NCBI RefSeq assembly: GCF_016026235.1
Contig: NZ_CP065613.1
Origin: Escherichia coli
Lineage (GTDB): Bacteria; Pseudomonadota; Gammaproteobacteria; Enterobacterales; Enterobacteriaceae
Reading direction: 5' to 3' (one strand)
Length of the DNA: 64,000 bases
Position numbers: made by a program. Each line of letters begins with the position of its first letter. The stretch's first letter is position 1. Shown piece after piece: positions 59,001 through 62,000 of the stretch.

Positions 59001-62000
59001 TTAGCATTGTTTTTCGCCACTTCAACCACATCCGGGATCAGGTCGTAGCCTTCCGGATGGGCCAAGGTGACATCCATACCGAAGCGAGTCATCAGACCGA
59101 TGATGCCTTGTGGTACAGAGAGCGGTTTGCCATAGCTTGGAGAGTAGGCCCAGGTCATGGCGATTTTTTTACCTTTCAGGTTTTCCAGTGAACCAAAGTG
59201 TTCACGTAACCACGCGAGGTCAGCCATTGACTGAGTCGGGTGGTCAATATCGCATTGCAGGTTCACTAAAGCCGGACGCTGTGGCAGTACACCCTGCTTG
59301 TAACCGTCATCAAGTGCAGCGCCAACTTCACGCATATAGGCGTTGCCTGCGCCCAGATACATATCGTCGCGAATACCAATAGCGTCGGCGCAGAAGGAGA
59401 TCATATTGGCGGTTTCACGCACGGTTTCGCCGTGAGCGATTTGTGATTTGCCTTCATCGAGATCTTGCTGTGCAAGGCCGAGCAGGTTAAGCGCGGAAGC
59501 ATAAGAGAAGCGGGTACGAGTGGAGTTGTCGCGGAATACGGAAATACCTAATCCACTATTAAAGACTTTGGTTGAGATGTTTTCAGCACGCAGTGCTTTT
59601 AATGCTGCGGCAACGTCCAGTACTTGTTTCAGTTCATCTGGCGTCTGTTCCCACGTTAACAAAAAATCTTTCTCGTGAAGGTGAGAGGTCAGCGAATTGA
59701 TATCCTTAATCAGCTCATTAACAGTTTTCATCATAAAGTCCCGGTAGTGGAATGACAGGCAAAGTGGTTTATTTCACTGTGACTTGCCAAAGTGATTGGT
59801 GTTTTCACAGCTATACCTGGGACTAACAATAAGTGTGCCAGAATTATCCACGGGGCTGCAAAAGACTAATTTGACGGATAATGTGTGGGGTTGATCACAA
59901 ATTGATGCTAGCTTCCGGTTGTTTGTAAAATACGAAAACGTTTGGCTTTTTTTATTGCGTTATTTATTTGCTGCTAAGTATCAGAAATAAGATAAAGGGG
60001 CAGGCTATCCCTCGTCAGTTTGATAAACTCACCGCCGTAATTCTCATATTGATATAGAAATGTGATATCTCTTCCATAATTTCATTAGAAAGTGATAAAA
60101 ATCTTATGTTTTTATCAAAGCCAATTTCGCCTGAGTTAATATCATCATGATCTGTGAACCATCAACGTCTTCAATGATCGACTTTTAAGTAAGTCTGGAA
60201 GGTAAAGCTATGGAGCTTGCTACTACGCAGTCAGTATTGATGCAAATTCAACCGACAATTCAGCGTTTTGCCAGAATGCTTGCCAGCGTTTTGCAGCTTG
60301 AGGTTGAGATCGTTGATGAAAACTTGTGTCGCGTCGCCGGAACGGGCGCGTATGGGAAGTTTCTTGGTCGCCAGTTGAGCGGCAACTCACGCCTGCTCCG
60401 CCACGTCCTGGAAACGAAAACTGAAAAAGTTGTGACACAGTCTCGCTTCGATCCCCTTTGCGAAGGTTGCGATAGTAAAGAAAATTGCCGCGAAAAAGCA
60501 TTTCTGGGTACGCCTGTCATTTTACAGGATCGTTGTGTTGGGGTGATAAGTTTGATTGCCGTTACCCACGAGCAACAAGAGCATATCAGTGATAATTTAC
60601 GCGAATTTTCTGATTATGTTCGCCATATATCCACCATTTTTGTTTCGAAACTTCTGGAGGATCAGGGGCCAGGAGATAACATCAGTAAAATATTCGCGAC
60701 CATGATCGATAATATGGATCAGGGCGTATTAGTTGTTGATGATGAAAGTCGGGTTCAGTTTGTTAATCAGACTGCCTTAAAAACACTTGGCGTTGTACAA
60801 AATAATATTATTGGGAAACCTATCCGTTTCAGACCATTAACATTTGAGAGTAATTTTACCCATGGACATATGCAGCATATTGTTTCGTGGGACGATAAAA
60901 GTGAATTAATCATTGGTCAATTGCATAACATTCAGGGCCGACAATTATTTTTAATGGCGTTTCACCAATCGCATACCAGTTTTTCTGTAGCAAATGCACC
61001 TGATGAACCACATATTGAACAATTGGTTGGCGAGTGCCGTGTTATGCGGCAATTAAAACGACTCATTAGCCGTATTGCACCCAGCCCATCCAGCGTTATG
61101 GTGGTTGGTGAAAGCGGCACGGGTAAAGAAGTCGTCGCCCGTGCAATCCATAAGTTGAGCGGAAGACGGAATAAACCCTTTATTGCTATCAACTGTGCCG
61201 CGATTCCGGAGCAGCTTCTGGAGAGCGAACTGTTCGGTTATGTTAAAGGCGCATTTACTGGCGCTTCTGCCAACGGTAAAACAGGGTTGATTCAGGCGGC
61301 GAATACGGGCACGCTGTTTCTCGATGAAATAGGTGATATGCCATTAATGTTGCAGGCTAAATTACTGCGCGCTATTGAGGCACGTGAAATTCTGCCGATT
61401 GGTGCCAGTAGCCCAATACAAGTCGACATTCGCATCATTTCTGCAACTAACCAGAATTTGGCCCAGTTCATTGCCGAAGGTAAATTCCGCGAAGATCTCT
61501 TCTACCGACTTAATGTTATCCCGATAACTCTGCCACCGCTGCGTGAACGTCAGGAAGATATTGAACTACTGGTGCATTACTTTTTACATCTGCATACCCG
61601 TCGTCTGGGATCGGTTTATCCTGGCATTGCTCCCGATGTCGTCGAAATATTGCGTAAGCATCGTTGGCCCGGAAACCTGCGCGAGTTAAGCAATTTGATG
61701 GAATATCTGGTTAACGTTGTTCCTTCAGGTGAAGTTATCGACAGCACGCTATTGCCGCCAAATCTGCTGAATAATGGCACAACGGAGCAAAGTGATGTAA
61801 CAGAGGTCACTGAGGCACACCTGTCACTCGATGATGCGGGCGGCACGGCGCTGGAGGAGATGGAAAAGCAAATGATCCGCGAGGCGCTTTCACGTCATAA
61901 CAGCAAGAAGCAAGTTGCTGATGAACTGGGCATCGGCATTGCTACGCTCTATCGCAAGATTAAGAAATATGAGTTGTTAAACACATAACCTCAGTGAATC

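Follow-up and report, generated by a model that had tools for sequence, protein, structure and literature searches.

A conserved sigma-54 promoter element ahead of ygeW, with candidate YgeV enhancer and CRP-like sites in the ygeW/ygeV spacer of Escherichia coli

Genes and features of the ygeW/ygeV spacer

The DNA analysed was a 64 kb stretch from Escherichia coli (the window), in which ygeW and the sigma-54 activator gene ygeV are transcribed away from each other. A preliminary description had pointed to an AT-rich divergent region of 475 bp between the two genes, and its limits coincide exactly with those of the spacer. The GC content is 0.365-0.372 in the spacer and about 0.52 in the coding sequence of ygeW. 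The preliminary description had also suggested that the spacer holds a sigma-54 promoter for ygeW with a correctly spaced -24 GG and an imperfect -12, and both of these marks were found in TGGCACACTTATTGT, which lies at 59826..59840 in the sense of ygeW (minus strand). Nowhere else in the window is TGGCAC-N5-TTGT matched exactly. The TGGCAC is perfect, with the -24 GG at 59838-59839; the GG-N10-G spacing is exact and the TTG is present, and the -12 reads GT (59827-59826) instead of GC. In the convention of Bonocora et al. the start lies 19 nt beyond the centre of the motif, and by arithmetic this predicted start leaves an 80-nt leader ahead of the ygeW ATG at 59734. No known RNA family or riboswitch was found in the 80-nt leader or the spacer among Rfam matches at E<=1.

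The protein encoded on the other side of the spacer, YgeV, begins with a weakly GAF-like region, which is followed by a PAS domain, an AAA+ domain with GAFTGA and a Fis-type HTH (residues about 530-592), and a receiver domain is absent. The domain matches are strong for Sigma54_activat (8.5e-71) and HTH_8 (1.4e-13), and the GAFTGA and Walker A motifs stand at residues 347 and 300. Among the loci retrieved, 30 have ygeV and ygeW in divergent orientation.

Two further features of the spacer are a PurR-like box at 59932..59947 (centre -125.5), which is confined to five close genera, and a conserved block that forms an inverted repeat at 60092..60118.

Table 1. Positions of the genes, promoter elements and candidate regulator sites at ygeW and ygfK. 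Centres are given relative to the predicted transcription start.
Feature	Position	Strand	Remarks
ygeW/ygeV spacer	59735..60209		475 bp, divergent genes on either side
ygeW, knotted carbamoyltransferase	58544..59734	-	first gene transcribed from the promoter
ygeV (isrR), sigma-54 enhancer-binding protein	60210..61988	+	
sigma-54 element of ygeW, 17-mer CTGGCACACTTATTGTT	59825..59841	-	ChIP-seq identity, PWM, orthologues
predicted ygeW transcription start	59814	-	12 nt after the -12; Bonocora convention; K-12 about 3,004,204
ygeW 5' leader	59735..59813	-	ribosome-binding region conserved in the alignment
CRP-like inverted repeat TGTGATCAACCCCACA	59884..59899		centre -77.5; 1 mismatch to TGTGA-N6-TCACA
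proximal candidate YgeV enhancer TTATCAAACTGACGA	60012..60026		centre -205; half-site TTATCA-N3-TG conserved
distal candidate YgeV enhancer ATATCAATATGAGAA	60041..60055		centre -234; cross-species consensus TTATCAATATGATAA
second CRP-like element TGGAAGAGATATCACA	60061..60076		20.5 nt upstream of the distal palindrome; ATCACA block conserved
sigma-54 element of ygfK GTGGTGCGATTGTTGCT	50190..50206	-	ChIP-seq site OS31
weaker second CRP-like site of ygfK	50239..50254		-67.5 of ygfK
perfect CRP consensus TGTGAGTTCATTCACA	50269..50284		-97.5 of ygfK
perfect palindrome TTATCATAATGATAA	50374..50388		-202 of ygfK

Strength of the motif and published binding

The position weight matrix scan proposed in the preliminary description was run with a matrix built from 130 ChIP-seq sites, from which the five sites inside the window were left out. 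The ygeW element scored 13.68 bits and ranked fifth of the 127,968 positions in the window, and the four positions that outscored it were those of hypA, hycA and ygfK and a site inside hycA. Among the bound sites, this score is above the 25th percentile (12.98) and below the median (14.35).

These scores were compared with what a degenerate consensus would match by chance in an AT-rich spacer. Matches to TGGCAC-N5-TTGC with one mismatch occur in the 64 kb at the chance rate (9 observed and 7.9 expected), and the two strands of 64 kb should hold about 3.1 matches as good as the ygeW element, at 13.6 bits or more. Taken by itself, then, the motif does not exceed chance. The motif and its location together are beyond chance, because only 0.011 such matches are expected in the ygeW/ygeV spacer on the correct strand. 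The orthologous sites in 39 species and the binding seen by ChIP-seq and gSELEX also speak against a chance match, to which we assign practically no weight: it is refuted by the conservation and the published binding data, which settle that the ygeW motif is real.

The ygeW promoter was reportedly first predicted by Reitzer & Schneider in 2001. A prediction was also published in 2011 by Francke et al. (PMC3162934). In vivo binding followed in 2015, when the ChIP-seq map of Bonocora et al. listed the 17-mer CTGGCACACTTATTGTT in its Table 1 as OS30, a sigma-54 peak that points towards ygeW, with the start predicted 80 nt before the gene (PMC4591121). In vitro, the RpoN holoenzyme gave a gSELEX peak in the ygeV/ygeW spacer with 53-55% relative intensity (Shimada 2021, PMC8743547). 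Together with the conservation, the 2011 prediction, the gSELEX peak and the identity with OS30 bear out the suggestion of a sigma-54 promoter for ygeW beside the activator gene. Binding of sigma-54 RNA polymerase to 59825..59841 has been shown by others (PMC4591121) and is not new; new here are the rank with the leave-out matrix, the conservation in 39 species, the palindrome and the conserved CRP-like site.

Bonocora et al. deliberately chose the wording 'binding site' and not 'promoter', and they stress that many bound sites may never yield productive transcription (PMC4591121). The ygeW element might be a poised or decoy site of this sort, which sigma-54 holoenzyme binds and from which it never fires in E. 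coli, with ygeW expressed elsewhere or hardly at all. Its ChIP occupancy is low, with a FAT of 3 against 26 at ygfK and 201 at hypA (PMC4591121), and its -12 is non-consensus. On the other side stand its conservation in other species, the co-variation of ygeWXY with the cluster's other sigma-54-preceded operons and the absence of an alternative sigma-70 promoter, and we consider a decoy quite unlikely.

Conservation of the element and its -12 base

An orthologous sigma-54 site of at least 12 bits was found before ygeW in 39 of the 40 proteobacterial loci, representing 39 gamma- and beta-proteobacterial species. The motif TGGCA[C/T]-N5-TTG[T/A/G] ends 65-110 bp before the ygeW ATG (once 228 bp), and the columns of the element are invariant in the cross-species alignment. 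Within E. coli, the 17-mer was without polymorphism in five divergent genomes. No comparable site was found at that position in the non-proteobacterial ygeW loci. The site, its distance to ygeW and the upstream palindrome are conserved in these 39 species, which belong to two proteobacterial classes, and such conservation would be difficult to account for if the site had no function.

At the -12 the 39 species have T (21), A (13) or G (5), and never the consensus C. By a count made by eye, the consensus C is also absent from 10 of the 135 bound sites listed, pspA and pspG included. Since the pspA and pspG promoters are experimentally confirmed, a sigma-54 promoter can function with GT at its -12. 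As judged from the alignments, the non-consensus -12 of the ygeW promoter is a conserved property and not a defect or a sign of decay.

A sigma-70 promoter as an alternative

The hexamer GATAAT, seen by eye at 59848..59843 just upstream of the sigma-54 element, could be taken as a -10 from which sigma-70 and CRP drive ygeW, in which case the sigma-54 match would be incidental. A good CRP-like site lies nearby and glucose represses the pathway, which would fit such a promoter. However, the hexamer has no acceptable -35, is not called by the scan and is unconserved beyond the closest relatives, whereas the sigma-54 element is conserved and is bound by sigma-54 in vivo. CRP would be centred near -55.5 for a GATAAT start, a non-standard position that is neither class I nor class II. 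No usable sigma-70 promoter was found on the ygeW strand: the sole candidate of the scan (59758..59730) overlaps the start codon, and the counts of sigma-70 candidates with 16-18 nt between -35 and -10 equal the shuffle expectation. A sigma-70 origin of ygeW transcription seems very improbable, and the sigma-54 element is kept as the promoter in what follows.

A candidate enhancer palindrome for YgeV

The preliminary description had proposed a search for enhancer-like inverted repeats of YgeV at -80 to -150. The candidate repeats were found instead at about -205 and -234, whereas most studied activators have their enhancer sites closer to the promoter. The only inverted repeat near the -80 to -150 zone is the CRP-like one at -77.5, which was not taken as an enhancer.

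In E. coli both copies at ygeW have two mismatches to the palindrome TTATCA-N3-TGATAA. The distal copy is kept at -234 to -238 in Enterobacteriaceae and is invariant within E. coli, and its reverse complement is an identical 15-mer upstream of ygfT. TTATCA-N3-TGATAA also stands at the sigma-54 promoters of ygfK (-202), ygfT (-199) and xdhA (-152). With at most one mismatch, 30 copies of the palindrome were counted in 322 kb of orthologous loci, where shuffles gave 0.5, and every one of these near-perfect copies stands 127-336 nt upstream of a sigma-54 site. The locus of a Comamonadaceae genome has two sigma-54 sites, one of them beside the ygeV homologue, and the palindrome lies ahead of both. 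Based on these occurrences, the palindrome was read as a candidate YgeV enhancer. No IHF site was seen by eye between the enhancer and the promoter as a match to WATCAA-N4-TTR.

The palindrome might instead be the site of a different regulator, for instance a repressor or a factor that responds to iron or purines. YgeV would then bind elsewhere or act from solution, on a promoter that would still be sigma-54-dependent. The motif is rich in AT and bears a loose resemblance to GATAAT-type boxes such as that of Fur, it lies a long way upstream (-200 to -235), and the spacer holds further conserved blocks in the ATCACA block at 60061..60076, the repeat at 60092..60118 and the PurR-like box. Against such a regulator, the near-perfect copies track sigma-54 sites without exception and far above the shuffle expectation, the palindrome is found at four sigma-54 promoters of the E. 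coli cluster and at the ygfK promoter in 10 genera, and the Comamonadaceae locus has it before both of its sigma-54 sites. A two-fold symmetric site of 15 bp also suits a dimeric Fis-type HTH. A Fur box in particular was set aside, since the motif tracks sigma-54 sites and the half-sites of a Fur box run TGATAA...TTATCA, opposite to the TTATCA...TGATAA of the palindrome. Altogether, a regulator other than YgeV is unlikely, though it keeps some weight, and YgeV remains the preferred ligand of the palindrome.

CRP-like sites in the spacer

A CRP-like site with at most two mismatches was found at -76.5 to -78.5 in 27 of the 40 orthologous promoters and at -67.5 in three more. The chance of a match with at most one mismatch to the CRP consensus in the scanned zone is 0.003, and the -77.5 site is invariant within E. 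coli. It is absent in Photobacterium and the beta-proteobacteria, where the promoter and the palindrome are kept. The second CRP-like element stands exactly -20.5 from the palindrome centre, with at most two mismatches, in 20 loci; TGGAAGAGATATCACA may act as another CRP site, perhaps one that serves ygeV, or it may belong to a composite enhancer.

A native Crp-binding site has been reported in the ygeW/ygeV spacer, and the report does not specify to which of the two CRP-like sites it refers (PMC12507026). Urate degradation is repressed by glucose, and replacing the promoter region of the spacer relieves the repression (PMC12507026). Since glucose represses the pathway, a positive or permissive role of CRP is implied at ygeW.

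The ygfK promoter

The preliminary description had also proposed a second, weaker sigma-54 match upstream of ygfK. Its place was right, as it overlaps GTGGTGCGATTGTTGCT, but its register was 9 nt out. The proposed register TGGCAAGAGTGGTGCG, on the minus strand at 50199..50214 and 82 bp ahead of the start codon of ygfK, reaches only 8.07 bits, and GTGGTGCGATTGTTGCT, in the register 9 nt downstream, reaches 14.12 bits. The proposed register was rejected as the ygfK element; it is unconserved in nine other genera (scores of -32 to -1), whereas GTGGTGCGATTGTTGCT marks the best ygfK site in all 10 species. The palindrome of ygfK was found in 10 genera at -161 to -214. The layout of distal palindrome, CRP-like site and sigma-54 element is repeated at ygfK and, in a weaker form, at ygfT and xdhA.

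Proposed mechanism and regulon

We think it probable that 59825..59841 (minus strand) serves as the -24/-12 element of a sigma-54 promoter for the ygeW-ygeX-ygeY-hyuA operon, which belongs to the anaerobic purine/uric-acid degradation cluster, and that this promoter works in the following way. Sigma-54 polymerase would sit at the element as a closed complex, silent until it is remodelled by ATP hydrolysis by YgeV, the divergently encoded AAA+ activator. A YgeV oligomer would bind the palindromes TTATCA-N3-TGATAA some 205 and 234 bp upstream, and cAMP-CRP at the conserved -77.5 site would help to form the long loop. The operon would then be under catabolite control and under a signal sensed by the GAF-like/PAS region of YgeV.

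The dependence of ygeW transcription on YgeV and rpoN is a part of this mechanism that we infer from co-expression, adjacency and the shared upstream palindrome. The 'YgeV iModulon' of PRECISE-1K (2023) holds ygeWXY-hyuA, ygfK-ssnA-ygfM-xdhD, xdhABC and ygfT (PMC10602906), and ygeV has been listed among the genes involved in anaerobic urate use. From the sequences of their upstream regions, the ygeW, ygfK, ygfT and xdhA promoters are proposed to form one YgeV/sigma-54 regulon.

It is conceivable, though we hold this only tentatively, that ygeWp is the prototype of a conserved three-part promoter class in the anaerobic urate/purine cluster, in which an unusually distal YgeV enhancer (palindrome TTATCAATATGATAA, at about -200 to -235) would be combined with positive CRP and with avoidance of C at the -12. 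In such promoters a helically phased CRP site (at -67.5, -77.5 or -97.5) might take the architectural role of IHF, and CRP acting positively would be the reverse of every described CRP/sigma-54 interaction. At ygeW only, selection against C at the -12 would perhaps weaken the closed complex, and firing would need both YgeV and CRP. None of these features (the distal enhancer, the positive CRP and the -12 selection) appears in the literature searched.

Significance for anaerobic urate degradation

The operons ygeW-hyuA and ygfK-xdhD, with xdhABC and ygfT, encode the recently described anaerobic route by which gut bacteria degrade uric acid, a route with a bearing on hyperuricaemia and gout. In engineered E. 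coli Nissle strains this very ygeW/ygeV spacer has already been replaced to force expression, and one paper on a Nissle strain states that the regulation of these genes 'remains poorly understood' (PMC12507026). With the full control region known, the regulon could be tested and re-engineered rationally, and not by wholesale replacement of the promoter. The sigma-54 element, the likely YgeV enhancer and the likely CRP site extend from Escherichia to Aeromonas, and all except the CRP site to the beta-proteobacteria as well. Such a control region would also supply a defined DNA target for finding the signal of YgeV.

Comparison with known systems

The closest known site is OS30 itself, which is identical to the site in the window in its 17-mer, its orientation and its 80-nt distance to ygeW. 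The window DNA is not from K-12, and the site itself does not differ from OS30. Bonocora et al. give OS30 without detail on activator, enhancer or conservation (PMC4591121).

The promoters of hycA (1229..1245, minus) and hypA (1357..1373, plus), which depend on FhlA, were bound in the same ChIP-seq experiment. They resemble the ygeW promoter as sigma-54 promoters in a divergent spacer, here of an anaerobic formate-linked regulon. However, they are near-perfect, with 17.7 and 20.0 bits and FAT of 91 and 201, whereas ygeW has 13.7 bits and a FAT of 3, and their activator and enhancer motif differ from those proposed at ygeW.

The pspA and pspG promoters (TTGGCACGCAAATTGTA and TTGGCATGATTCTTGTA) are confirmed sigma-54 promoters with the same TTGT instead of TTGC at the -12. 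Their activator PspF has no sensory domain, and IHF binds between enhancer and promoter. They serve a stress regulon, whereas the ygeW promoter is catabolic.

At glnAp2, dctA and Pu the effects of CRP on sigma-54 promoters are inhibitory (PMC3900584 and references in it). There CRP-cAMP acts from a position between the enhancer and the polymerase, by way of the geometry of the DNA and a contact to the alpha-CTD (PMC3900584). The sign implied at ygeW by the glucose repression is the opposite, and the ygeW site is strong, conserved and helically phased, whereas CRP at glnAp2, dctA and Pu is weakly bound or recruited.

The DioR regulon of Clostridiales is the case in which a sigma-54 activator stands over the same gene set (Nie et al. 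2019, PMC6615313). It comprises dpaL (ygeX), ygeW-ygfK-ssnA-ygeY, yqeB, yqeC, xdhC and a purine permease (PMC6615313). It differs in belonging to Firmicutes, in its operon order and in the DioR enhancer motif, which is described as distinct (PMC6615313). Because DioR controls the same gene set, sigma-54 control of the purine pathway seems to be either ancient or recurrent.

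The sigma-54 site ahead of ygeW

The preliminary description, made from the sequence alone, proposed a sigma-54 promoter for ygeW in the spacer between ygeW and ygeV, with a correctly placed -24 GG and an imperfect -12. Both features are present in TGGCACACTTATTGT, whose -12 dinucleotide is GT, not GC, and the proposed reading is supported by published binding of the surrounding 17-mer and by conservation. GC content is 0.365-0.372 in the spacer and ~0.52 in the ygeW coding sequence. The region 59500-60500 is 100% identical to strain FDAARGOS_943; of 5426 complete E. coli genomes, 5187 carry it.

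Features of the window discussed in the text. The ygeW positions are counted from its predicted start (59814, minus strand).
Feature	Coordinates	Strand	Remarks
ygeW	58544..59734	minus	knotted carbamoyltransferase
ygeV	60210..61988	plus	sigma-54 interaction domain protein
ygeW-ygeV spacer	59735..60209		475 bp; the described interval exactly
Proposed 15-mer TGGCACACTTATTGT	59826..59840	minus (ygeW-sense)	exact match
Sigma-54 17-mer CTGGCACACTTATTGTT	59825..59841	minus	PWM 13.68 bits
CRP-like site TGTGATCAACCCCACA	59884..59899		centre -77.5 of ygeW
PurR-box-like AGCCAAACGTTTTCGT	59932..59947		centre -125.5 of ygeW
Proximal palindrome	60012..60026		centre -205; second copy, half-conserved
Distal palindrome ATATCAATATGAGAA	60041..60055		centre -234; E. 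coli copy
Second CRP-like block, TGnnA-N6-ATCACA	60061..60076		exactly 20.5 nt upstream of distal palindrome in 20 loci
ygfK sigma-54 site GTGGTGCGATTGTTGCT	50190..50206		14.12 bits
ygfK register first proposed, TGGCAAGAGTGGTGCG	50199..50214		8.07 bits
ygfK conserved blocks	50300..50372
ygfK palindrome	50374..50388		-202; perfect
CRP-like TGTGACGTAATTCTCA	51462..51477		-78.5 of IS34
IS34	51521..51537	plus	sigma-54 site within yqeC, directed at yqeB
GTGGCACATCTACTGCA	1108..1124	minus	13.9 bits; within hycA, sense
hycA promoter (OS27)	1229..1245	minus	17.7 bits
hypA promoter (OS28)	1357..1373	plus	20.0 bits
ATGGCGCATTTTGTGCA	62668..62684	plus	PWM 12.9 bits; inside xdhB, antisense
ISEc60 copy	~40474..41990		IS4-like

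The site is already in the literature. Francke et al. 2011 had ygeW in their set of new sigma-54 promoter predictions (PMC3162934), and Table 1 of the ChIP-seq map of Bonocora et al. 2015 gives the identical 17-mer as site OS30 (PMC4591121; peak at 3,004,190 on the K-12 plus strand, ygeW (b2870) downstream with its start predicted 80 nt ahead of the gene, fold-above-threshold 3, without an EcoCyc flag at that time). Shimada et al. 2021 (PMC8743547) report an RpoN-holoenzyme gSELEX peak within the spacer, whose intensity relative to the strongest peak was 53% without NtrC and 55% with it. Lamoureux et al. 2023 (PMC10602906) described a YgeV iModulon that includes xdhABC, ygeW-X-Y, hyuA, ygfK-ssnA-ygfM-xdhD, ygfT and uacT, and that paper credits the earlier identification of the xdhABC and ygeWXY sigma-54 promoters to Reitzer & Schneider 2001. 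ChIP-seq sites OS29-OS32 precede the iModulon operons. No rpoN or ygeV dependence of ygeW transcription, mapped ygeW start or defined YgeV binding site was found in the searchable literature.

Taken alone, the ygeW motif is barely more than chance. TGGCAC-N5-TTGC at one mismatch occurs in the window at the random rate (9 found, 7.9 expected). The ChIP-seq sites of the Bonocora et al. 2015 map (135, less the five within the window) served to build a position weight matrix (PWM), and the scan called for in the preliminary description ranked CTGGCACACTTATTGTT 5th among 127,968 positions, after hypA (20.0), hycA (17.7), ygfK (14.1) and another match within hycA (13.9). Its score is above the 25th percentile of bound sites and below their median. 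Under a first-order Markov model, ~3.1 matches of this strength are expected per 64 kb on both strands, and 0.011 on the correct strand of the spacer.

Other sigma-54 matches were seen along the window. The hycA and hypA promoters, at its left end, have the two top scores; GTGGCACATCTACTGCA, a third strong match, is absent from the high-stringency ChIP-seq tables. By coordinate conversion, ATGGCGCATTTTGTGCA lies one or two hundred bp or less from the junction of xdhB and xdhC, where Shimada 2021 (PMC8743547) places a gSELEX peak. A sigma-54 site upstream of ygfK, where a weaker match had been noticed, proved real (OS31, fold-above-threshold 26), but the match was in the wrong register: TGGCAAGAGTGGTGCG is not conserved, and GTGGTGCGATTGTTGCT is the best site in 10/10 species examined.

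The ISEc60 copy links two segments that are ~140 kb apart in K-12: hyc-mutS-rpoS-cys-CRISPR/cas3 and, inverted, xdhD...xdhA. A 4-kb query across this junction found no place with at least 80% coverage in any of the 5426 complete genomes. The DNA probably comes from a Shigella-like strain that is rich in IS elements and related to FDAARGOS_943.

Conservation across species

A YgeW scan with one genome per species gave 80 loci, 40 of them gamma- or beta-proteobacterial. In 39 of these 40 the best PWM match within 300 bp ahead of ygeW reached at least 12 bits, with the orthologous pattern TGGCA[C/T]-N5-TTG[T/A/G] and 65-110 bp from motif end to ATG (once 228). These loci include Citrobacter, Klebsiella, Edwardsiella, Serratia, Hafnia, Morganella, Erwinia, Aeromonas, Photobacterium, Rhodocyclaceae and Comamonadaceae; no comparable site was seen at the same position in Bacteroidales, Riflebacteria or the other non-proteobacterial ygeW loci scanned. 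Five divergent E. coli genomes differ at ~14 positions in 411 bp and at none within the 17-mer. The cross-species conservation is new in this analysis.

Among the 39 species, the position of the consensus C at -12 is T (21), A (13) or G (5) and never C, and the sister promoters ygfK, xdhA and ygfT retain TTGC; this makes the imperfect -12 a conserved trait of the ygeW promoter. TTGT also occurs in the confirmed pspA and pspG promoters (PMC4591121). The motif as a chance match, which the window-wide counts would allow, is excluded. A bound but silent decoy is unlikely, because both the position of the site and its partners are conserved.

A palindrome common to the cluster promoters

Phylogenetic footprinting of 20 spacers from Enterobacterales, together with motif scans, brought out three more conserved elements. 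The preliminary description had suggested looking for enhancer-like inverted repeats 80-150 bp upstream; palindromes are indeed present, but centred at -205 and -234. The consensus across species is TTATCAATATGATAA. Its centre varies by group: -234 to -238 for Enterobacteriaceae, -242 to -255 for the Aeromonas isolates, -185 to -206 for Photobacterium and -162 to -175 for beta-proteobacteria. In 322 kb (40 loci) there are 30 matches to TTATCA-N3-TGATAA that have one mismatch or none, versus 0.5 in shuffles, and all 30 near-perfect copies have a sigma-54 site 127-336 nt downstream.

In E. coli the palindrome also stands at three other cluster promoters: ygfK, ygfT (-199, the identical 15-mer as reverse complement of the ygeW copy) and xdhA (-152). 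The ygfK promoters of nine further genera all have it, at -161 to -214. From this co-occurrence we infer that the palindrome is a candidate YgeV enhancer; its assignment to YgeV rather than another factor is the weakest link of the whole reading.

A Comamonadaceae MAG (L076, 7416 and 7543) has, divergent from its ygeV homologue, another sigma-54 site, CTGGCACGATTTTTGAA, which scores 18 bits and likewise lacks GC at -12, with palindrome TTATCAATCTGATAA centred 127 nt ahead of the predicted start. In E. coli WP2-S18-ESBL-08 (L097, 1..~75), IS903B is inserted directly upstream of the distal palindrome and cuts the ygeW promoter off from ygeV and from the spacer's upstream half, a natural test for which upstream elements ygeW needs.

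YgeV and a proposed mechanism

The N-terminus of YgeV is weakly GAF-like, with a CxxC pair. A PAS domain follows, then a sigma-54 AAA+ domain, whose Walker A and GAFTGA motifs are at residues 300 and 347, and finally a Fis-type HTH. Domain analysis of the protein found no receiver domain, so the label 'orphan response regulator' given to YgeV/IsrR in PMC9426417 misfits its domains; it looks like a one-component sensor-activator. Sigma-54 holoenzyme occupancy of the 17-mer was shown by others (PMC4591121). YgeV oligomers on the two palindromes might reach this closed complex through DNA looping and open it through ATP hydrolysis. cAMP-CRP at -77.5 could bend the DNA between, or touch alpha-CTD, which would place ygeW under catabolite control.

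CRP-like sites

In 27 loci a CRP-like site with at most two mismatches is centred at -76.5 to -78.5, and 3 have it at -67.5; within the scanned zone, a match to the CRP pattern with one mismatch or none has a chance probability of 0.003. Among the loci scanned, the -77 site is absent in Photobacterium and beta-proteobacteria. At ygfK two conserved sites lie at -97.5 (perfect) and -67.5 (weaker), and weak matches lie at -67.5 and -68.5 of xdhA and ygfT, respectively. These positions are ~10 or 30 bp apart, so they fall on roughly the same helix face. A sigma-70/CRP promoter for ygeW is not supported, and sigma-54 remains the preferred reading.

Further blocks were observed nearby. The spacing of TGTGACGTAATTCTCA to IS34 is at most 1 nt off that at ygeW. 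The ygfK control region, here and in L084-L092, has more conserved blocks between palindrome and CRP-like site: TTTTGAGAAA ~20 nt 3' of the palindrome, and TGATT..AATTCTCATTTA. AGCCAAACGTTTTCGT is ~3 mismatches from the PurR consensus, ACGCAAACGTTTGCGT, and its conservation in the Enterobacterales footprint is limited to E. coli, Citrobacter R56, Atlantibacter, Klebsiella indica and Trabulsiella.

The conserved non-C -12, the distal palindromic candidate enhancer common to the cluster promoters and the phased CRP-like sites are directly testable extensions of the published site. A native Crp site in the ygeV/ygeW spacer is mentioned in PMC12507026, where glucose repressed urate degradation unless the promoter region of the spacer was replaced. 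At the sigma-54 promoters glnAp2, dctA and Pu, CRP is inhibitory (PMC3900584 and references in it), whereas the glucose repression seen here would imply a positive or permissive role for CRP.
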